Source: an uncultured bacterium
Lineage (GTDB): Bacteria; Omnitrophota; Gorgyraeia; Ghiorseimicrobiales; Ghiorseimicrobiaceae
Assembly: GCA_913009335.1 (NCBI GenBank)
Contig: CAJVXN010000007.1
Coordinates: 1 to 59,855 of the forward strand
Length of the DNA: 59,855 nt
Direction of reading: 5' to 3'
Translations under genes and position numbers: made by a program
Shown here: positions 1,138 through 56,287 of the stretch, piece by piece
Position numbering within the stretch: position 1 is the stretch's first letter
Layout: every line of letters starts with the position of its first letter
The notes under the pieces: model-generated
Seen by the model: only the letters and a program-made list of their open reading frames with translations
Databases searched by the model: none
What the model was told of the DNA's origin: nothing

Positions 1138-1638
1138 CTACAACTTTAATCCTTTATGCTTTATATAATGCTTAACTAATCCGCCGTCAGCTAGAAGCTT
1201 GCGCAACACAGGCGCAATAGGCTTAATAGTTATCTGCTTAGAGCTATTCTGATTAGTAATCATACCTCTATTTAAATCTACACTAATAACATCACCCTCT
1301 TTAATATTGCGCGTATCAGCCTCAATCAAAGCCAGGCCAATATTAAACGCATTACGATAAAAAATCCTGGCAAAACTCTTTGCTACCACTGCCGTAATCC
1401 CTGCTGCCTTTATTGCCAGAAGCGCCTGCTCACGGGATGAACCACATCCGAAATTTTCCCCCGCTACGATAATAGATTTTCCGGGTTTTATTCTTTTAAA
1501 AAAATGAGGATCTAAATCCTCCATTACATGCTTAGCAAGCTCATTAATATCAGTAATCGCGAATTTATATCTACCGGAAATAATCAAGTCAGTATTTACA
1601 TCATTGCCTAATTTTAAAGCTGATCCTTTAATCTTCAC
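1138..1638 (-). CDS. leuD: 3-isopropylmalate dehydratase small subunit (LeuD/HacB family)
   Basis: From the GTG at 1636-1638 the protein reads [24 protein letters not shown], a typical LeuD N-terminus. The ORF-track start at 1689 adds 17 in-frame codons that are a translated repeat element. Confidence 0.85.
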
Positions 1639-1688
1639 CCCGTCCTTCCTTCCCAAGCTTATCCGCCCTTTAGGAAGGGCGGGGTTCA
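1634..1688 (-). mobile_element. short TGAA-flanked inverted-repeat element (47-nt body at 1638-1684)
   Basis: mRNA sense: TGAA|CCCCGCCCTTCCTAAAGGGCGGATAAGCTTGGGAAGGAAGGACGGGG|TGAA. The terminal arms CCCCGCCCTTCC and GGAAGGACGGGG are complementary. Confidence 0.6.
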
Positions 1689-12181: not shown

Positions 12182-12333
12182 TTATTTTGACTCTCCCTTA
12201 TCCTTTTAATGAAACCACAATTTACGCAACGTTAACGTTCGTAAATTGTATGGTCGAATTAACCCCGCCATCGGCGGGGTAAGTTCGGATAAGTAAGTTA
12301 TGAGCACTATCGCTCCATAACTTACGTCCTCAC
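12182..12333 (-). repeat. A-B-C hairpin cassette (copy 1) filling the rpsE-rplO junction
   Basis: Module A is at 12217-12249 (ACAATTTACG..CGTAAATTGT), B at 12262-12280 (ACCCCGCC-ATC-GGCGGGGT) and C at 12293-12325 (GTAAGTTATGAGC-N6-GCTCCATAACTTAC). Confidence 0.8.
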
Positions 12334-12846
12334 TCATTTTTCTTCAGTCTCTGATTCTAATGCCTTGCTATCTAGCTTTCTAGCTCTCCTGATTTTTACT
12401 TTACTTAAGCCATCCAAAGTAGCCTTTACGGTATTAAGCGGATTATTGGATTTCAAACACTTTGTTAATATATCTTTAATGCCTGCAGATTCACAAACTG
12501 CCCTTACTGATCCGGCGGCAATAACTCCAGTACCTTCACTAGCAGGTTTAAGTAATACTTTTGCTGCTCCAAAATGACCAATAATCTCATGAGGTATGGT
12601 TGTATCAAGCATGCTTATCTTAATCATAGAATTCTTAGCACGGGTTATGCCTTTTTTTATCGCAGATGGAACTTCGTTGGCCTTGCCTAATCCCGCGCCA
12701 ACCTTACCTTTTGTATCTCCCACTACAACCAAAGCTGTAAAACAAACTTTTCTTCCCCCCTTGGTAACCTTGGAGACACGCTTAATGCTTACGATTTTTT
12801 CTTCTAATTCACTAGACTGTTTTCTAAAAGTATTCGGGTTTGCCAT
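12334..12846 (-). CDS. rpsE: ribosomal protein S5
   Basis: Contains [24 protein letters not shown]. Confidence 0.95.
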
Positions 12847-16159: not shown

Positions 16160-16204
16160 TTAATGGCTTTGGCTATCGGATGCCAAACCATCGCCCTCTG
16201 GCTT
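16160..16204 (-). repeat. solo copy of the 44-nt repeat, overlapping the rpmC 3' end
   Basis: TTAATGGCTTTGGCTATCGGATGCCAAACCATCGCCCTCTGGCTT matches the units at 16446-16576. Confidence 0.85.
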
Positions 16205-16414
16205 ACTATTTTTTTCGCTTGTAGTTTTATTTTTATTTTGACTAACCAGAGTTTCTATTCTGGCAATATCTCTTTTAAACTTGGAAAATAAATGCGGCTT
16301 ATCCACTCTTCCGGCTTTACGCTGGTAATTCAATTTATGCAATTCCTCTTTAAAAGCGGTCTTCTTCTGAGCCAGTTCATCAGGACTTAAATTGTTAAAA
16401 TCATTTTTCTTCAT
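16160..16414 (-). CDS. rpmC: ribosomal protein L29 with a repeat-derived C-terminal extension
   Basis: The L29 core is LSPDELAQKKTAFKEELHKLNYQ...IARIETL. The last 14 codons (KPEGDGLASDSQSH) and the stop lie in a copy of the 44-nt repeat. Confidence 0.9.
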   Translation of the reverse strand: MKKNDFNNLSPDELAQKKTAFKEELHKLNYQRKAGRVDKPHLFSKFKRDIARIETLVSQNKNKTTSEKNSKPEGDGLASDSQSH

Positions 16415-16445: not shown

Positions 16446-16576
16446 TACTGGCTTTGGCTATCGGTTGCCAAACCATCGCCCTCTGGCTTAATGGCTTTGG
16501 CTATTTGGAAGCCAAACCATCGCCCTCTGGCTTAATGGCTTTGGCTATTTGGAAGCCAAACCATCGCCCTCTGGCT
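16446..16576 (-). repeat. 3 tandem copies of a 43-44-nt repeat between rplP and rpmC
   Basis: Units are at 16446-16488, 16489-16532 and 16533-16576. Plus-strand unit: TAATGGCTTTGGCTATTTGGAAGCCAAACCATCGCCCTCTGGCT. Each can fold as ATGG-TTTGGC...GCCAAA-G-CCAT. Confidence 0.9.
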
Positions 16577-16994
16577 AATATGAGTGTAAGTGTTTAACAA
16601 GCTTAGTACGAACGGGCAATTTAAATGATGCGCGTCTGAAAGCCTCCTTAGCTGCTTCCTCAGGTATGCCGCCTAATTCAAATAAAACCTGACCCCGCCT
16701 AACAACTGCTACCCAATGATCCAAATCCCCTTTACCTTTTCCCATACGGGTTTCAGCAGGTTTTTTAGTTACTGATTTATGGGGAAAAATCCTAATCCAT
16801 AGTTTCCCACCTCGACGCAGCTGCTTGGCGACGACTATACGCACGGCCTCGATATGATTATTCCTAATCCAACCATTCTCTAGCGACTTTAAACCGAACT
16901 CACCGAAGTTAACCTTACTGCCGCGAATACCCAGGCCCCGGCGCTTTCCGCGCTGTAATTTTCTATACTTTACTCTCTTGGGCATTAATACCAT
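16575..16994 (-). CDS. rplP: ribosomal protein L16
   Basis: N-terminus is M(VLM)[16 protein letters not shown]. The stop TAG abuts the first repeat unit. Confidence 0.95.
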
Positions 16995-17691: not shown

Positions 17692-18027
17692 CTATTTCCC
17701 TCTTAAATCTAACTCAATTTTTAAATGTGTTGTTCGCTTTAATATCGATGAGGCCCGCCCAAAAGCAGCTGCGCGAAATCTCTTCCATCGCACGCCCTCA
17801 TCTGCAGTAATGCGAGAAATATAAAGATTGTTCGACTCAACACCTTTTACTTTCGCATTAGCCACGGCAGAAAGCAGTGCCTTACGTACGTAATATTTCG
17901 GCCGCCTATCCACGTTATCAAGAGTTATCAATGCGCGAGATATATCTTTACCTCTAATCAAATTGATTACGTCCCTGACTTTTCGCGATGAGAGCCTTAA
18001 AAATTTACTTTCTGCTTTTGATATCAT
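17692..18027 (-). CDS. rplV: ribosomal protein L22
   Basis: 111 aa containing LRLSSRKVRDVINLIRGK. Confidence 0.95.
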   Translation of the reverse strand: MISKAESKFLRLSSRKVRDVINLIRGKDISRALITLDNVDRRPKYYVRKALLSAVANAKVKGVESNNLYISRITADEGVRWKRFRAAAFGRASSILKRTTHLKIELDLRGK

Positions 18028-18162
18028 ATTTATGAGACCTCAATTTACGCAACGTTAGCGTTCGTAAATTGTATGGTCGAATTAATCCGCCATTGCTTCA
18101 GTGGCGGATAAGTTCAGACAAGTAAGTTATGAGCGTTATCGCTCCATAACTTACGTCCTCAC
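18028..18162 (-). repeat. A-B-C hairpin cassette (copy) at the rpsS-rplV junction
   Basis: Module A is at 18041-18071, B at 18085-18109 (ATCCGCCA-N9-TGGCGGAT) and C at 18122-18154. Confidence 0.8.
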
Positions 18163-18450
18163 TTATGTTTTATCCACAGCTTTCTTAGCCTTTACTCCGC
18201 CGTGTTTTCTGAATGTCCGCGTTGGCGCAAATTCACCCAACTTATGCCCTACCATATTCTCAGTAATAAATACGGGAATATGATTTTTACCATTATGCAC
18301 TGCAAATGTAAGACCAACGAAATCCGGAATAATAGTTGACCTACGTGACCAAGTCTTAATTGGCTGCCTGGTGCCGGATCTACGTGTCCGCTCAACCTTC
18401 TTTAATAACTTCTCATCTATAAAAGGACCTTTTTTAATTGAACGTGGCAT
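18163..18450 (-). CDS. rpsS: ribosomal protein S19
   Basis: N-terminus is [18 protein letters not shown]. Confidence 0.95.
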
Positions 18451-21094: not shown

Positions 21095-21232
21095 ATTTTA
21101 ATGAGACCGCAATTTGCGAAATTTCAATTTTCGTAAATTGTATGGTCGTTTTAATCCGCCACTGAATCAATGGCGGATAAGTTCGGACACATAGGTTACG
21201 AACGCTTATCGCTCCGTAACTTATATCCTCAC
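21095..21232 (-). repeat. A-B-C hairpin cassette (copy) at the rpsJ-rplC junction
   Basis: Module A is at 21110-21140, B at 21154-21178 and C at about 21190-21224. It begins immediately after the rpsJ stop and ends CTCATTAAAAT before the rplC ATG. Confidence 0.8.
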
Positions 21233-21532
21233 TTATTTAATTTCCGCAGCTACCCCCGAAGGAAGATTTAATTTCCTCAGCGCATCAACGGTTTTTGCCG
21301 TTGGATCCACTAGCTCAAGAAGGCGTCTATGTGTAAATAAACCAAACTGCTCTCTAGCTCTTTTATCAATGACCGGAGACTTAAGAACCGTATATATCTC
21401 TTTCTTTGTCGGAAGAGGAATAGGACCTGAAACACGAGCCCCTGTTCTTTTGGCTGTCTCTACAATCTCCAGGATCGATTGATCCAGAAGCCTATGGTCA
21501 TAAGCTTTTAACTTAATACGTATCGTCTGCAT
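21233..21532 (-). CDS. rpsJ: ribosomal protein S10
   Basis: N-terminus is [19 protein letters not shown]. Confidence 0.95.
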
Positions 21533-21627
21533 TTTAATGAGACCGCAATTTACGCAACGTTAACGTTGCGTAAATTGTATGGTCGAATTAACCCCGCCAA
21601 AGGCGAGGTAAGTTCCTATCTAACAAA
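21533..21627 (-). repeat. A-B hairpin cassette (copy) at the tuf-rpsJ junction
   Basis: Module A is a perfect 14-bp stem, CAATTTACGCAACG-TTAA-CGTTGCGTAAATTG, at 21546-21577. Module B is at 21591-21609. Confidence 0.8.
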
Positions 21628-47373: not shown

Positions 47374-48924
47374 CTACCTATCAATTATATAACTTTCATA
47401 AGACCTAATCGCTTCCACCTGAGCCTTTGCCTTATTTACCGTCTCATAATATTCTTTTTCTGGATCCGAATCAGCTACAATACCAGCTCCAGCCTGAATA
47501 TAAGCGATCTTGTTCTTAATTACAATTGTCCTGATTGTAATACATGTATCTAAATTGCCGGAAAAACTAAAATAGCCTACGCATCCGGCATAGGGCCCGC
47601 GAGATAGACCCTCTAATTCGTCAATTATTTCCATCGCTCTTACTTTTGGCGCACCTGAAACTGTGCCTGCGGGAAAAGTTGAGGCCACTACATCAAAAAC
47701 ATTTTTTCTCTTGCTTAAATCACCCTTTACATTGCTAACGATGTGCATAACATGTGAGTATTTTTCAACATGTTTAAATTCATTTACCTTAACACTGCCA
47801 TAGTCACAAACCCTGCCTAAATCATTCCTGCCTAAATCAACAAGCATTAAGTGTTCGGCATTCTCTTTTTTATCTTTTAATAAATTAGCTGCCAAACTAG
47901 CATCCTCTTTTTTGTCTTTTCCCCTTCTGCGAGTTCCGGCTATAGGGCGCATTTGCACCAATCCATCTTCACACCTTACAAACATTTCCGGAGAAGACCC
48001 GACTAAGGACAAATCCTTAAAATTTAAATAAAACATATACGGTGAAGGATTAATAGAGCGAAGGCTACGGTAGATACCAAACGAACCATACTTAATAGGA
48101 TAATAAAACCGTTGGGACAAAACCACCTGTATTATATCGCCTTTTTTAATATATTCTTTCGCGCGGCGCACCATATCTTTAAACTTTTTCTTACTTATGT
48201 TAGATTTAATCCCAGAAAAAGAAGTTGAATGTTTTCCCCTCTTAGCCAATATTTTCGAAGAGGGTAAATTTCTCCTCAATTTAACCTCTACCTTCTCAAT
48301 TTTTCCAATAGCCTCACTATATATTCGTTTAAGCAATGCTTTATTTATTTTTTGCTTTTGTGTTATATGCGTATTTACTACAATCTTTACATTGTGCCTG
48401 CGATGATCAAAAATAATAAGATTCTCTGCTAGAATAAAATAACTATCCGCTAATTTTAAATCATCTTTTATTTTATCCTCTGCTAATTTAGGTTCGAAAA
48501 ATCTCACCATGCCATAACCAAGATACCCGATAAATCCCCCCGAAAACCGAGGCAGGCCATTTTGCTCTACAAAATGAAGACCTTGCATTATTTTTCTTAA
48601 TTCATCTAATGGACTTTTTGTTGTTAGAAAAGTCCTTACTGTCCTTTTCTTTTTTTTAAAACCGGCCCCTGTCTCATAGCTAGTAACTGTTATTTTATTT
48701 TTTTTACTGCTAAAAACAATTAGAGGCTCACTGCCTAAAAAAGAAAAGCGCGCAATTTTATCCTCACCTTCCACAGACTCAAGAAGATAAGAATAATCCC
48801 CGGTTTTAATTTTTAGATAGGCAGACACAGGCGTATCGGTATCCGCGAAAATCTCTTTATATACCGGGATAATATTACCTTTTTTTGCTAATCTTATAAA
48901 TTCCTTTTCACTGGGATGATACAT
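47374..48924 (-). CDS. trpE: anthranilate synthase component I
   Basis: 516 aa with DTDTPVSAY, LLESVEG, and the chorismate-binding C-terminus GAGIVADSDPEKEY. Confidence 0.85.
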   Translation of the reverse strand: MYHPSEKEFIRLAKKGNIIPVYKEIFADTDTPVSAYLKIKTGDYSYLLESVEGEDKIARFSFLGSEPLIVFSSKKNKITVTSYETGAGFKKKKRTVRTFLTTKSPLDELRKIMQGLHFVEQNGLPRFSGGFIGYLGYGMVRFFEPKLAEDKIKDDLKLADSYFILAENLIIFDHRRHNVKIVVNTHITQKQKINKALLKRIYSEAIGKIEKVEVKLRRNLPSSKILAKRGKHSTSFSGIKSNISKKKFKDMVRRAKEYIKKGDIIQVVLSQRFYYPIKYGSFGIYRSLRSINPSPYMFYLNFKDLSLVGSSPEMFVRCEDGLVQMRPIAGTRRRGKDKKEDASLAANLLKDKKENAEHLMLVDLGRNDLGRVCDYGSVKVNEFKHVEKYSHVMHIVSNVKGDLSKRKNVFDVVASTFPAGTVSGAPKVRAMEIIDELEGLSRGPYAGCVGYFSFSGNLDTCITIRTIVIKNKIAYIQAGAGIVADSDPEKEYYETVNKAKAQVEAIRSYESYIIDR

Positions 48925-49088
48925 AAATGAGCTTATAACTTACAGAGTGCCTTACCGCACGATGTAAGTTATTTATGCGAATTAACCCCGCCCCTTTTTA
49001 CTGCTAGGTGTATCTTCATAGTAGAAAGAGGCGGGGTAAGTTCAGATTTATGACTTACGTCGGCATAAAACCTCCGTAAGCCATGTCT
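48925..49088 (-). repeat. rearranged hairpin cassette (C-like, long B, C-like) at the hisI-trpE junction
   Basis: The hairpin ATAACTTACA..TGTAAGTTAT is at 48935-48972. ACCCCGCC...GGCGGGGT at 48985-49037 carries a 37-nt insert. ATGACTTACG..CGTAAGCCAT is at about 49049-49085. Confidence 0.7.
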
Positions 49089-49436
49089 TCAACTTATTCT
49101 CCTATAAAAACAACTCCTATTGCCGGTATGACAGGCAACTCCCACCTGTCTTACCTGTATCAGTAAAGCATCCATATCGCAATCATAATACATGGATTTT
49201 ACAAACTGGAAATGTCCGGATGTCTCTCCCTTAACCCAAAACTTCTTACGTGAGCGGGACCAAAAACATGTCTTGCTAGTTTTAATAGTCCGCTTAACAG
49301 ACGCCGCATTCATGTATGCGACCATAAGGATATCTTTCTTCTTATAATCCTGAATGATTGTTACAATTAATCCTTTATCATCAAACTTTAAATCCTTGAC
49401 TTTAAATTTTATTTCAAGCTTATTATTATTTTTCAC
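49089..49436 (-). CDS. hisI: phosphoribosyl-AMP cyclohydrolase
   Basis: 115 aa with GETSGHFQ and [12 protein letters not shown]. The GTG start at 49434-49436 is formed by the repeat-element end. Confidence 0.9.
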
Positions 49437-49488
49437 CCCGCTCTTCCTTTCTTCTGCTTATCCCTGCCCTTAGGAAGGGCTGGGTTCA
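49432..49488 (-). mobile_element. short TGAA-flanked inverted-repeat element (49-nt body at 49436-49484)
   Basis: mRNA sense: TGAA|CCCAGCCCTTCCTAAGGGCAGGGATAAGCAGAAGAAAGGAAGAGCGGGG|TGAA. The left TGA is the hisF stop. Confidence 0.6.
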
Positions 49489-50259
49489 TATCCTCACACT
49501 TACTCCTTTTTCCGAAAGATAATTCTTAACGCCGGCAATAGAAAGTTGACGATAATGAAATAAAGATGCCGCCAAAGCCGCGTCCGCGCAGCCCTTAGTT
49601 AATACATCATAAAAATCCGAAACACTTCCTGCGCCCCCTGAGGCAATCACGGGGATCTTAACGGCACCTGATACGGCCTTAGTTAATTCCAAGTCATAAC
49701 CATTCTTCGTACCATCAGCATCCATACTCGTAAGTAAAATCTCCCCTGCTCCCAACTTCTCTGCTTTTTTTATCCATTCAATAGCATCTAACTCTGTAGG
49801 GGTCCTTCCACCGTTTATATAAAGCTCCCAGCCAGGCGGTTTACCTTCCTGGGGTTCTCTTCGTTTAGCGTCAACCGCAATTACAATACACTGACTTCCG
49901 AAACGACGGGAAGTCGCTGATATTAAATCAGGATGCTTTATTGCGGCAGTATTCATAGAAACCTTATCCGCCCCCGCGTTAAGTAAATCCCGGATATCCT
50001 CAGTATTACAAACGCCTCCGCCTACGGTAAATGGCATAAAAATGCTCTCGGCAACTCTTTTAACTACATCTATCATTATTCCGCGCTTATCCGAACTTGC
50101 CGTAATATCTAAAAAAACCAGCTCATCGGCACCTTCACTATCATAATAAATCGCACTTTCGACAGGATCTCCGGCGTCCTTTAATTCTTTAAATTTGACA
50201 CCTTTAACAACGCGTCCGTCTTTTACATCCAAACAAGGGATTATTCTCTTAGTTAACAT
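49486..50259 (-). CDS. hisF: imidazole glycerol phosphate synthase cyclase subunit
   Basis: Begins [20 protein letters not shown] and is 257 aa. Confidence 0.95.
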
Positions 50260-53589: not shown

Positions 53590-56183
53590 AATAGCATACC
53601 CTCAATAATTCTCTCTATTTCTTTTGGATTTTTCAATAATCTCTCCCACTCTTCTTCCGTCTTCTCCCAATCTTTATTCTTCATGCCGCCCTGGATTAAA
53701 TCAGGCCTTCCTCCGCCTTTTAAGCCTAGCTTCTTTATAATCTTTTTTGCATCATACCCGCTGCCTTTAACATCTTTCGATAACCCAAGAATAAACAATC
53801 CATTCCCGGAAAAACTGCTAAAGAGAAAGGTGATAAAAGGACATGGAATCTTACTCTTTAATAAATCTAACGCTTTGCGCATATTCTGCATATCGCAAAC
53901 TTTAATATCAGCGATCAAAAGATTAATACCTTTAACAGCCTTAACTTTTTCAAGAATTGACGGGACATCTCTTTCAAACAACTTTAAATAATGATTAGAC
54001 AGATCTTTTTCTAATTTTTTAATATATTTAAATTTGGCTTCTATTTTCAGCAGGAGCTTATCCCGGGAAACTCCAAACTCATCTGCCAGCTTTGAAATTA
54101 CTATCTCATCTTCCTGGAGTTTTTTTTGGGCGAATTTTCCGGTTATTGCTTCAATCCTTCTAACTCCCGAAGCAATAGAACTTTCCGATACAATCTTAAA
54201 TAAACCAATCTGCTCCGTATTATCTAAATGCAAGCCTCCGCAAAGCTCTTTTGAATAATCACCCACCGATACCATTCTTACCGTATCCTGATACTTCTCG
54301 GAAAAAAACGCAAGGGCACCTTCTTTTTTTGCATCACTTAGCGAGAGTTCGCGCTTTATTACTTTATTGTTTAAATAAATATATTCATTAACTAATTCTT
54401 CCACGCGGTTAATCTCTTGCTCACTCATACGTTTAAAATGCGCGAAGTCAAATCTTAAGTATTCATCAGATACCAAAGAGCCTTGTTGCCTGATATGCTC
54501 ACCCAGTACGCGACGCAGCGCGGATTGCAAAAGATGTGTTGCCGTATGGTTTTTCGTAATATCTAACCGAACATCCTTATCAACTATAGCACGAACTTTA
54601 TCACCCTCTTTAAAATTACCCTTTGCTATTTTTACATAATGGATAATAGCATCGTTTATTTTTTTAGTATCATAAACCGCAGCACTCGCGGCATTAGACT
54701 CTATCCTGCCTCTATCGCCAATCTGACCGCCGGACTCAGCATAAAAAGGTGTTAAATCTAAGATTATCTTTGTTTCGTTTTTGTCCGCGATAACATCCAA
54801 GACTTTCGCATCTATTGCGTCAGTTTCATAACCCACGAATTCCGTCTTAAAATCTATATCCGCGCTTCTTGCCCCTCCAAATACATCAGCTACTATACTG
54901 CTTGCTTCTTTAGATTGAATACGCCTTTCCTGCATCAACTTAGCTACTGCCTGCTGATCAAACTTAATCCCTTTTTCTTTCAACAGCTCCAAAGGATATC
55001 CGTGTGTATCATAAAGCATAAATGCTTCTTGGGGCGAAAGTTTACTTTTGTCTCCTACAATCCGCTCACCTTCAGAAAGTGTCTGGGCAAATCTTTCCTC
55101 CTCAGCCTTAATAACCAAAGAAATATTCTCACGATGAGCTTCCATCTCCGGATAAACCTCTTTCATAACCTTAACAACAATAGGTACAATCTTATACATA
55201 AACGGTTTTTCACATCCTAAGCCCATTGCCTTAAAATAAGCCCGACGGATAAGTTTCCTAATAACATACCCTCTTTCCTCGTTTGAAGGCATAACGCCGT
55301 CCGAGATAGCGAATACTGCGGCACGGACATGATCGGCTATTGCATACAGCTGTCTCTCTATTTTTTTAGCTATAATACTCTGAGAAAGCCCTAAAGCGCT
55401 TTTTATTGATTCTATTATCGGCTCAAATATATCAATCTCAAAATTCGTCTTCTTCCCCTGAAGCACTGCCGCCATACGCTCAAGACCCATACCCGTATCA
55501 ATATTCTTCTGAGGCAAAGGCTCTAATTTATTCGGCCCAATACGGTTAAACTGTGTAAATACTAAATTCCAGACCTCAACAAATCTTCCACAGTCACAAG
55601 CAAGAGAACAATCAGGCTTTTTACAACCTTCGCTCTTACCCCAATCATAAAAAATCTCCGAGCATGGTCCGCAGGGCCCATTTGGCCCGTCAGCTATAGC
55701 ATTAGCCGGCCAGAAATTATCCTTATCACCAAACTTTACGATTTTTTCTTCAGGGATTTTTACTAAATCCCGCCATATTCTATAGGCCTCATCATCATCC
55801 TTGTAGACTGATACCCATAACTTTTCTGATGGCACCTCTAAAACTTCATGTATAAATTCCCAACCCCAAAGAATTGCTTCTTCTTTAAAATAATCCCCAA
55901 AAGAAAAATTGCCTAACATTTCAAAGAACGTATGATGACTGCTTGTCCTGCCTACATTATCAAGATCCCCGGTCCGTAAACACTTTTGACAACTAGCAGC
56001 GCGGCGAAAATCACCCACTTCACCTAAAAACTGTTTCTTAAACTGGCTCATCCCTGCCGAAGTAAATAAAACAGTTAGGTCATCCTGAGGAATGAGGGAA
56101 TCCGAAGATATAACTCTATGCCCTTTTGATTTGAAAAAATCGAGGAAATCACTCCTTAATTTATCAGTCGTCTTAATCTTCAC
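53586..56183 (-). CDS. alaS: alanyl-tRNA synthetase
   Basis: 865 aa containing LRSDFLDFFKSKGH. The GTG start at 56181-56183 is formed by the repeat-element end. Confidence 0.93.
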   Translation of the reverse strand: MKIKTTDKLRSDFLDFFKSKGHRVISSDSLIPQDDLTVLFTSAGMSQFKKQFLGEVGDFRRAASCQKCLRTGDLDNVGRTSSHHTFFEMLGNFSFGDYFKEEAILWGWEFIHEVLEVPSEKLWVSVYKDDDEAYRIWRDLVKIPEEKIVKFGDKDNFWPANAIADGPNGPCGPCSEIFYDWGKSEGCKKPDCSLACDCGRFVEVWNLVFTQFNRIGPNKLEPLPQKNIDTGMGLERMAAVLQGKKTNFEIDIFEPIIESIKSALGLSQSIIAKKIERQLYAIADHVRAAVFAISDGVMPSNEERGYVIRKLIRRAYFKAMGLGCEKPFMYKIVPIVVKVMKEVYPEMEAHRENISLVIKAEEERFAQTLSEGERIVGDKSKLSPQEAFMLYDTHGYPLELLKEKGIKFDQQAVAKLMQERRIQSKEASSIVADVFGGARSADIDFKTEFVGYETDAIDAKVLDVIADKNETKIILDLTPFYAESGGQIGDRGRIESNAASAAVYDTKKINDAIIHYVKIAKGNFKEGDKVRAIVDKDVRLDITKNHTATHLLQSALRRVLGEHIRQQGSLVSDEYLRFDFAHFKRMSEQEINRVEELVNEYIYLNNKVIKRELSLSDAKKEGALAFFSEKYQDTVRMVSVGDYSKELCGGLHLDNTEQIGLFKIVSESSIASGVRRIEAITGKFAQKKLQEDEIVISKLADEFGVSRDKLLLKIEAKFKYIKKLEKDLSNHYLKLFERDVPSILEKVKAVKGINLLIADIKVCDMQNMRKALDLLKSKIPCPFITFLFSSFSGNGLFILGLSKDVKGSGYDAKKIIKKLGLKGGGRPDLIQGGMKNKDWEKTEEEWERLLKNPKEIERIIEGMLL

Positions 56184-56287
56184 CCCGCTCTTCCTTCCTT
56201 CTATCTATCCCTGCCCTTAGGAAGGGCGGGGTTCACCCCGTCCTTCCTTCTCAAGTTTATCCCGTCCTCTAAGAAGGACTGGGTTTA
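56179..56287 (-). mobile_element. tandem dimer of short inverted-repeat elements (bodies at 56236-56283 and 56183-56231)
   Basis: mRNA sense: TAAA|CCCAGTCC...GGACGGGG|TGAA|CCCCGCCC...GAGCGGGG|TGAA. The leftmost TAA is the recX stop. Confidence 0.6.

Follow-up and report, generated by a model that had tools for sequence, protein, structure and literature searches.

Bacterial miniature inverted-repeat transposable elements (MITEs), among them the Correia/NEMIS elements of Neisseria, the pneumococcal RUP and ERIC/IRU, are short, non-coding and multi-copy. They have terminal inverted repeats, are bounded by a short target duplication and have empty sites in relatives; they are also co-transcribed with neighbouring genes and able to alter the expression signals of those genes. 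Here, we describe an element that resembles them in all of these respects and lies at positions 49432-49488 (minus strand), at the junction of hisF and hisI, in a 59,855-nucleotide stretch of DNA from an uncultured member of the Omnitrophota (GCA_913009335.1, contig CAJVXN010000007.1; hereafter the window). The hisI element is short and gene-less, occurs in many copies, ends in inverted repeats and has both a target duplication and an empty site. Our results indicate that it is very probably a start-codon-targeting, non-autonomous, MITE-like insertion derived from an Omnitrophota mobile element. It differs from described MITEs in being far smaller (49 nt), in using the start codon NTGAA as its target, in rebuilding a Shine-Dalgarno (SD) sequence and a start codon, and in its fixed polarity. 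Furthermore, the related full-length elements of other Omnitrophota, which share its ends and are 283-303 nt long, encode only a predicted GIY-YIG nuclease of ~96 aa and not a DDE transposase.

Read in the sense of the mRNA, the hisF/hisI junction consists of a TGAA, the 49-nt element body and a second TGAA, and every coordinate given for this arrangement in a preliminary description of the locus is correct. All features of the junction are on the minus strand. hisF (49486-50259) encodes the 257-aa cyclase subunit of imidazole glycerol phosphate synthase (PF00977), whose C-terminus, ...VRI before the stop, aligns with the ...IRI or ...VRI of relatives. The gene ends AGG ATA TGA and its native stop (49486-49488) is retained within the left TGAA (49485-49488), which the sequence and the empty sites of relatives identify as one copy of the duplicated target. 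Together with A49489, this left TGAA also holds the stranded ancestral hisI ATG (49487-49489), 53 nt from the present GTG and, as had been claimed, out of frame with hisI. The body, CCCAGCCCTTCCTAAGGGCAGGGATAAGCAGAAGAAAGGAAGAGCGGGG (49436-49484), was delimited from the sequence and the family alignment and has a single exact match in the window, where none is expected by chance. Its terminal inverted repeats are 12 nt each, and 10 of the 12 bases are complementary in this copy: the 5' arm, CCCAGCCCTTCC (49473-49484), and the 3' arm, GGAAGAGCGGGG (49436-49447), whose last G also opens the hisI GTG. Between them, an inner arm read from the sequence, GGGCAGGG (49462-49469), is a potential alternative pairing partner of the 5' arm; long variants of the element have, in its place, the 3' arm repeated in full. 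The purine-rich tract AAGGAAGAG (49441-49449) stands 4 nt 5' of the GTG, just where the preliminary description had placed it, and includes most of a putative SD, GAAAGGA (49445-49451), 8 nt from the same codon. The right TGAA (49432-49435), recognized as the second copy of the target from its sequence and from the variant flanks of copies elsewhere, contributes the TG of the rebuilt hisI start (49434-49436), and the element contributes the G. hisI itself (49089-49436) opens TGAA AAA AAT AAT after this G and encodes a 115-aa phosphoribosyl-AMP cyclohydrolase (PF01502), 65-77% identical to its closest relatives. An 18-codon open reading frame (ORF) spans the insertion (49433-49489): its ATG overlaps the hisF stop (ATGA), its first residues after the initiator, N-P-A-L-P, are encoded by the 5' arm, and its TGA overlaps the hisI GTG (GTGA). 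We refer to it as the relay ORF; neither this frame nor its link to a nuclease gene (see below) was recognized in the preliminary description. The filled junction is identical letter for letter across three records that were assembled independently (ERZ1742235, ERZ909566 and DRR093003), which excludes an assembly artefact.

Excising the body and one TGAA from this junction yields AGGATATGAAAAATAATAAT, and the preliminary description had accordingly predicted an ancestral state in which the hisF stop and the hisI start overlap as ATGA. This state exists. We located HisI homologues in 40 relatives of the same class, none of them from the same genus, and read 19 of the junctions, in relatives with hisF upstream of hisI; 8 of the 19 keep the ATGA overlap of -4, and none has element arms near hisI. 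In the same-family genomes G001 (...AGGATATGAAAAG...) and G002 (...AGGATATGAAATC...) the TGA of hisF overlaps the ATG of hisI, and the same overlap is present in G004 (AGGTTATGAATA; AGGTTATGAATAAA) and G006 (AGACCATGAAAG). Empty-site strings in same-family genomes are AGGATATGAAAA or AGGATATGAAAT, with G001 and G002 reading AGGATATGAAAA/T. The reconstructed pre-insertion sequence, AGGATATGAAAA, matches G001 at 12 of 12 bases, and the empty sites of sister genera are identical to it over 11-12 bases. Among the relatives compared, the insertion at hisI is found in this lineage only. Its history at the level of DNA is well supported: the element entered an ancestral AGGATATGAAAA junction, with the left TGAA preserving the hisF stop and the terminal G of the element joining the right TGAA to create a new GTG AAA start for hisI. 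G001 also has the element at the start of leuD (L094, PCWA01000109.1), apparently on the same contig as its empty hisF/hisI site (L002, G001:C82), suggesting that the leuD insertion is older or recurrent. Separately, the 5' end of hisI in G004 (L005, 1455-1490) contains the heptamer ATGCGGA four times in frame (...AAATGCGGAATGCGGAATGCGGAATGCGGAATT...), a slippage-prone tract.

The same comparison bears on the idea that the sequence is not mobile at all and is instead a host cis-regulatory RNA, an intercistronic leader, thermosensor or attenuator conserved for the regulation of hisI and other genes. Several of its properties would suit such an RNA: it stands in the mRNA directly 5' of start codons, its fold conceals the SD, its three arms allow possible alternative pairing, and its arm variants are compensatory between genomes (CCCCTCC/GGAGGGG, CCCTTTC/GAAAGGG and GTAC/GTGC in different subfamilies). 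However, compensatory arm changes are equally expected of transposon ends, and the comparison of junctions that the preliminary description had proposed turned up empty sites and no conserved regulatory RNA at orthologous positions. The absence of the element from hisI in 19 of 19 relatives, 8 of them with a bare ATGA overlap, largely refutes this explanation. In addition, the genes downstream of the copies have no common pathway (his, leu, alaS, purD, aroB, aroE, a lipopolysaccharide heptosyltransferase and rpmC), the flanks are a duplicated target with matching variants, and the full-length relatives encode a nuclease. No Rfam match was found on the element (48800-50000, E up to 10), with only chance-level matches elsewhere, and folding the aligned 23 copies of this genome with RNAalifold gave a conserved stem with no compensatory pairs, a result that is uninformative for RNA function. 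We therefore regard a regulatory RNA as extremely improbable.

The 23 copies were identified (nhmmer, E<1e-6) in a metagenome-assembled genome of 1.88 Mb with 38% G+C that is 92.6% complete, and a scan with the two 12-nt arms alone recovered the same 23 and none additional. Their mean column identity is 82% and their consensus, in mRNA sense, reads (A)TGAA, then CCCCGCCCTTCC TAAAGGGCGGGATAAGCTTGG GAAGGAAGGRCGGGG, then TGAA, with CCCCGCCCTTCC and GGAAGGGCGGGG as the arms. Four copies lie in the window. Besides the one at hisI, the family search placed a sister copy at the start of leuD (1634-1688, body 1638-1684, minus strand) and two copies arranged in tandem between recX and alaS (56179-56287, bodies 56236-56283 and 56183-56231, minus strand). 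No copy is closer to that at hisI than the alaS-proximal member of this pair (89% identity across 63 nt; repeat family D11). The tandem copies have one TGAA in common, and the upstream copy has TAAA instead of TGAA at its 5' edge, the TAA being the recX stop. Throughout the genome, 21 of the 23 copies terminate in a start codon (GTG in 20 and ATG in one, a degenerate copy) that is in frame with an ORF of 115-865 aa. The first residues of these ORFs resemble genuine N-termini, examples being PurD (VKVLVIGSGGREHAL), AroE (VKIYGLIGYPVKHSLS) and AlaRS (VKIKTTDKLRSDFLDFFKSKGH), as well as LeuD and AroB. The two exceptions are the upstream tandem member and a 149-nt composite that itself ends in GTG followed by a 117-aa ORF. 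At the other end of the element, the 5' edge is ATGAA in 16 copies, and in 6 of those 16 the TGA of the pentamer is the stop codon of the upstream gene.

Two lines of evidence define how the element meets its target. First, where flanks depart from TGAA they do so on both sides: ATGGAT...GTGGAT (C15:32274) and ATGAG...GTGAG (C43:10750) in this genome, and TAAA/TAAA in three cases from other Omnitrophota genomes. The TGAA repeat is therefore a true target duplication. Second, the association with start codons far exceeds what random insertion followed by loss of intragenic copies predicts. By a crude gene call, NTGAA occurs 428 times at called starts, 2,091 times in non-coding DNA and 11,658 times within genes, so that ~17% of surviving insertions should be at starts; we observed at least 21 of 23 (binomial P ~1e-14). 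The polarity of the interior relative to the non-palindromic TGAA is identical in 22 of 22 copies. An element in the opposite orientation would, given the near-perfect inverted repeat that the arms form, likewise end in ...GGAAGGGCGGGG followed by TGAA. Both the enrichment at starts and the fixed polarity argue for either directional, start-directed insertion or strong selection. A search for an additional target motif 5' of the stranded start revealed only modest G enrichment, as in an ordinary SD region.

Fixed polarity is also what strand-specific insertion predicts, and the element is a hairpin in a genome that encodes five proteins with a Y1_Tnp domain. These observations raise the possibility that the element is a hairpin of the REP/REPIN or IS200/IS605 type, mobilized in single-stranded form by a Y1 (HUH) transposase and inserted 3' of TGAA without true duplication, the right TGAA being part of the element. 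In REP/REPIN systems with RAYT the Y1 gene is flanked by the repeats, whereas here element arms occur within 1.5 kb of none of the five Y1 genes. Hairpins derived from IS200/IS605 have a fixed end and no target duplication, and the matching variant flanks (TGAG, TGGAT and TAAA) fit duplication better than they fit a fixed element end. REP elements, moreover, are typically found downstream of genes and not on start codons, and the only gene found inside the termini of the present family encodes a GIY-YIG nuclease. We consider movement by a Y1 transposase very improbable, and favor insertion with duplication of TGAA.

The family extends well beyond this genome. A covariance model built from the 23 copies identified it in 61 of 201 sampled genomes of the class (30%), with conserved termini and flanks and, in other genomes, an interior of ~28 to 128 nt. 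We oriented 171 copies at 146 loci in other Omnitrophota genomes. Of these, 138 have ATGAA as their 5' pentamer and 28 have GTGAA, and TGAA follows 148 of them on the 3' side. The frame set by the GTG runs for 60 codons or more without a stop in 134 of the 171, as against 4 and 9 in the remaining two frames, and most exceptions are tandem copies or cases in which the scan picked the inner arm. Nine of ten loci spot-checked in other families start recognizable genes (L29, AroB, QueF, PurN, an LptF/G-type permease, ArgF and others).

Some Omnitrophota also carry what appears to be the parent of these short copies. The 283-303-nt elements have the same termini and TGAA flanks and contain a single ORF of 94-101 aa, for example MNPALPKEWYYVYLL...WIYIGCTNDLKNRLKEH...ELIYFEGY...REKNLK...KGRAG and stop, with the N-terminus MNPALPK... 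This ORF begins at the ATG or GTG of the host, and its TGA, within GGGGTGAA, overlaps the rebuilt GTG with which a long host ORF starts. It matches the Pfam GIY-YIG family (PF01541, E 3e-13) and is closest by sequence to the UPF0213 proteins 1zg2 and 1ywl. A structure predicted from a three-sequence alignment has low confidence (predicted local distance difference test score, pLDDT, 62) and was used as a consistency check only; it gives weak fold matches to UPF0213, Slx1 and the N-terminal domain of UvrC. Homologues of the nuclease (57-100% identity, with both termini covered) are present in 7 of the 201 genomes, and all 7 also carry the short element, compared with 30% overall. The nuclease is the presumptive enzyme that moves the element, and the short family would have arisen from the nuclease-bearing elements by internal deletion. 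The relay ORF of the hisI copy, as judged from its sequence, is a fusion of the N- and C-terminal remnants of the nuclease frame.

The retention of both ends of the nuclease frame could also mean that the hisI copy never moved in its short form: a full-length element might have inserted at hisI and later decayed in place by internal deletion, and full-length elements do occupy the same kind of site. However, the interior of the hisI copy, TAAGGGCAGGGATA...GAAGGAAGAGCGGGG, is common to the alaS copy at ~89-90% identity, and its layout is found in six other copies with the same 53-nt spacing. Elsewhere in the genome, two copies (C15:15200-15247 and C23:18216-18263) have 48-nt bodies identical to each other. 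An interior common to several copies implies that the deletion preceded copying, and we judge decay in place very improbable relative to arrival of an already shortened element.

The arrangement of a small GIY-YIG gene next to a hairpin has a precedent in Ssn, a nuclease that cleaves single-stranded DNA next to a hairpin. Its small single-domain gene has on either side the hairpin-forming SRM/NTS repeat, many more copies of which are dispersed in the genome, and a role in natural transformation rather than transposition has been proposed for Ssn (Chenal et al. 2025, PMC11893778). The full-length elements of other Omnitrophota have this gene-plus-hairpin layout, which we did not find in the present genome. 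The two systems differ in that Ssn belongs to CDD cd10448, whereas the Omnitrophota protein appears closest to UPF0213 (1zg2, 1ywl) and Slx1, the latter in part on the low-confidence model, and in that NTS repeats are not described as entering start codons or duplicating their targets.

Two further GIY-YIG genes of this genome deserve mention in their own right. At C3:13704-13960, an ORF of 86-88 aa lies within near-perfect inverted repeats of ~15 bp, CCCCGTTAGAGATAA...TATCTCTAACGGGG; these termini start CCCCG and end CGGGG, as in the hisI-type element, and the ORF shares 45-50% identity with the nuclease that the full-length elements encode. At C16:19783-20133, a small GIY-YIG ORF has tRNA-like strings on both sides (CCCCATCGTCTAGTATGG... 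and GACACCGGTTCAAAT), and it looks as if this nuclease gene had inserted into a tRNA gene or duplicated part of one.

How might a gene continue to be translated after an insertion of this kind? Our analysis argues that hisI is probably translated from the element-borne GTG, as the preliminary description had proposed. An in-frame stop lies 7 codons 5' of this codon, and no other ATG, GTG or TTG is available between that stop and the conserved LKFDxxGLIPxIIQDY block, starting 12 residues into the protein; the next in-frame ATG is codon 37, within the conserved core of HisI. Independent gene callers, in public records, start hisI at the same GTG. The suggestion that the element also brings an SD tract holds up well, as GAAAGGA is a 7-nt complement of the 3' end of this genome's 16S rRNA (...CACCUCCUUUC / ...GGAUCACCUCCUUUC) with an 8-nt spacer to the GTG. 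The purine-rich 3' arm would thus provide the SD for the new start. The arms of the hisI copy form a predicted hairpin of -17.9 kcal/mol, and in predicted folding the SD has a probability of 0.19 of being unpaired in free mRNA and of 0.79 once the footprint of a ribosome at the hisF stop is imposed.

In a published reporter study (PMC10666635), termination-reinitiation was nearly abolished at gaps of ~20 nt. The 49-nt gap created by the insertion exceeds this range, so direct ancestral coupling should break, and either the relay ORF or SD-driven initiation would be needed. We envision a scenario in which the arms pair in free mRNA and hide the SD, and two routes could then lead to hisI. In the first, a ribosome terminating at the TGA of hisF would melt the hairpin and allow SD-driven initiation at the GTG. 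In the second, ribosomes would restart at the stranded ATG, translate the 18 codons through the hairpin and stop at the TGA within GTGA, from which they could pass to the GTG, such that the ancestral ATGA coupling may be relayed instead of lost. By either route, hisI would stay coupled to hisF.

Aspects of this scenario have parallels in other repeats and in engineered devices. Mycobacterial interspersed repetitive units (MIRUs) are reportedly intercistronic repeats within operons, with a small ORF that overlaps the stop and start codons of the neighbouring genes, and probably preserve translational coupling. The hisI element has the same organization, with a small ORF that starts in the ATGA of hisF and ends in the GTGA of hisI. 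MIRUs, however, are tandem minisatellite units for which, to our knowledge, neither inverted ends nor a duplicated target nor an associated nuclease gene has been reported, whereas the hisI element, from a different phylum, consists of one unit that has inverted arms and is bordered by duplicated TGAA; we presume the sequences to be unrelated. Another functional analogy is the engineered bicistronic design (BCD), in which a leader ORF reportedly holds the downstream SD, the stop of the leader overlaps the downstream start and ribosomes unfold the structure. It is an analogy only, since BCD cassettes are engineered and the hisI element is natural and mobile. Finally, the Rickettsia palindromic elements (RPEs) are small palindromic mobile repeats found in translated regions, inserted in frame inside ORFs; we know of no RPE that targets start codons or rebuilds translation signals. 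An RPE-like outcome is conceivable for two copies in the present genome. At leuD a distance of 51 nt separates the stranded ATG from the GTG and keeps the two in frame, and LeuD could carry a 17-residue, element-encoded N-terminal extension; C10:18549 is arranged in the same way with a spacing of 54 nt, and would add an in-frame N-terminal peptide of its own.

Several observations weigh against the model we favor. No nuclease-bearing copy with these termini was found in the present assembly, which is 92.6% complete, or elsewhere in the family: pairs of arms 130-4000 nt apart in this genome are only neighbouring short copies, a tblastn search of it with the 96-aa nuclease returned only six small GIY-YIG paralogues (36-50% identical) without the element termini, and the 201-genome sample contains no close homologue from the same family. 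GIY-YIG nucleases are hydrolytic, and we know of no strand-transfer chemistry for them. An empty allele from the same species, sought in metagenome contigs as the exact joined-flank pattern, was not found. The gain in stability of the hisI hairpin over shuffled sequence is modest (z = -1.95). In addition, an uninterrupted relay ORF ending in GTGA is present in just 2 of the 23 copies here and 34 of 144 phylum-wide; among the remainder of the 144 are 23 in-frame fusions and 72 copies with a stop inside the element. That few copies keep an intact relay implies that the relay is not essential for the family.

These points notwithstanding, we consider a mobile, start-codon-targeting origin of 49432-49488 to be very probable, and a more ambitious interpretation of the family deserves to be stated, albeit tentatively and with somewhat less than an even chance of being right. 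The family could represent the traces of a hitherto undescribed class of transposable element in prokaryotes, in which the sole protein is a GIY-YIG nuclease of ~96 aa that lacks a start codon of its own, insertion is actively aimed at starts and the element compensates for its insertion by passing ribosomes on to a rebuilt start. The nuclease would be expressed only when the element lands, in fixed polarity, on a host NTGAA start codon, and starts could be targeted for their resemblance to the SD-spacer-GTGAA end of the element itself. On this view, the copy at hisF/hisI would serve as a natural "bicistronic insulator", having turned one ATGA coupling into two. We found no description of such a start-codon-seeking family in the searchable literature.

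The window contains additional repeats. The spacer between the hisI stop and the start of trpE (48925-49088) holds a different hairpin element with 43-nt arms (48960-49002 and 49020-49062) that are 77% complementary around the core ACCCCGCC/GGCGGGGT; one portion, 48964-48992, is a member of repeat family D2, other members of which lie at 12241, 13793, 18064, 21133 and 21570. With this hairpin downstream and the element at its start, hisI has a mobile hairpin at either end. The stretches 12203-12352, 18026-18181, 21095-21251 and 21532-21615 belong to a second family of larger repeats (D1-D7, D10), which are ~110-150 nt long and contain several hairpins. At 16467-16598 (and 16182-16225) a 44-nt unit, GCCAAACCATCGCCCTCTGGCTTAATGGCTTTGGCTATTTGGAA, is arranged head to tail, with two identical copies and one that has diverged (D4).

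If the model presented here is correct, some GTG starts and odd spacers of ~50 nt in Omnitrophota genomes would be explained, and annotators would do well to treat such sequences as insertions and not as leaders. The tiny GIY-YIG protein would be a candidate minimal enzyme for transposition or homing, with a defined target of 5 nt, and as such of potential interest as a tool. The hisF/hisI site would represent a natural experiment on translational coupling, in which one ATGA overlap was replaced by a relay ORF, and it is an especially clean one, with empty sites in sister genera that are identical over 11-12 bases and with the ATGA and GTGA overlaps both intact. More generally, these bacteria would harbor a mobile element that inhabits the start codons of essential genes in tight operons, the sites under most constraint in a compact genome, by bringing with it a portable ribosome-binding site and start codon.

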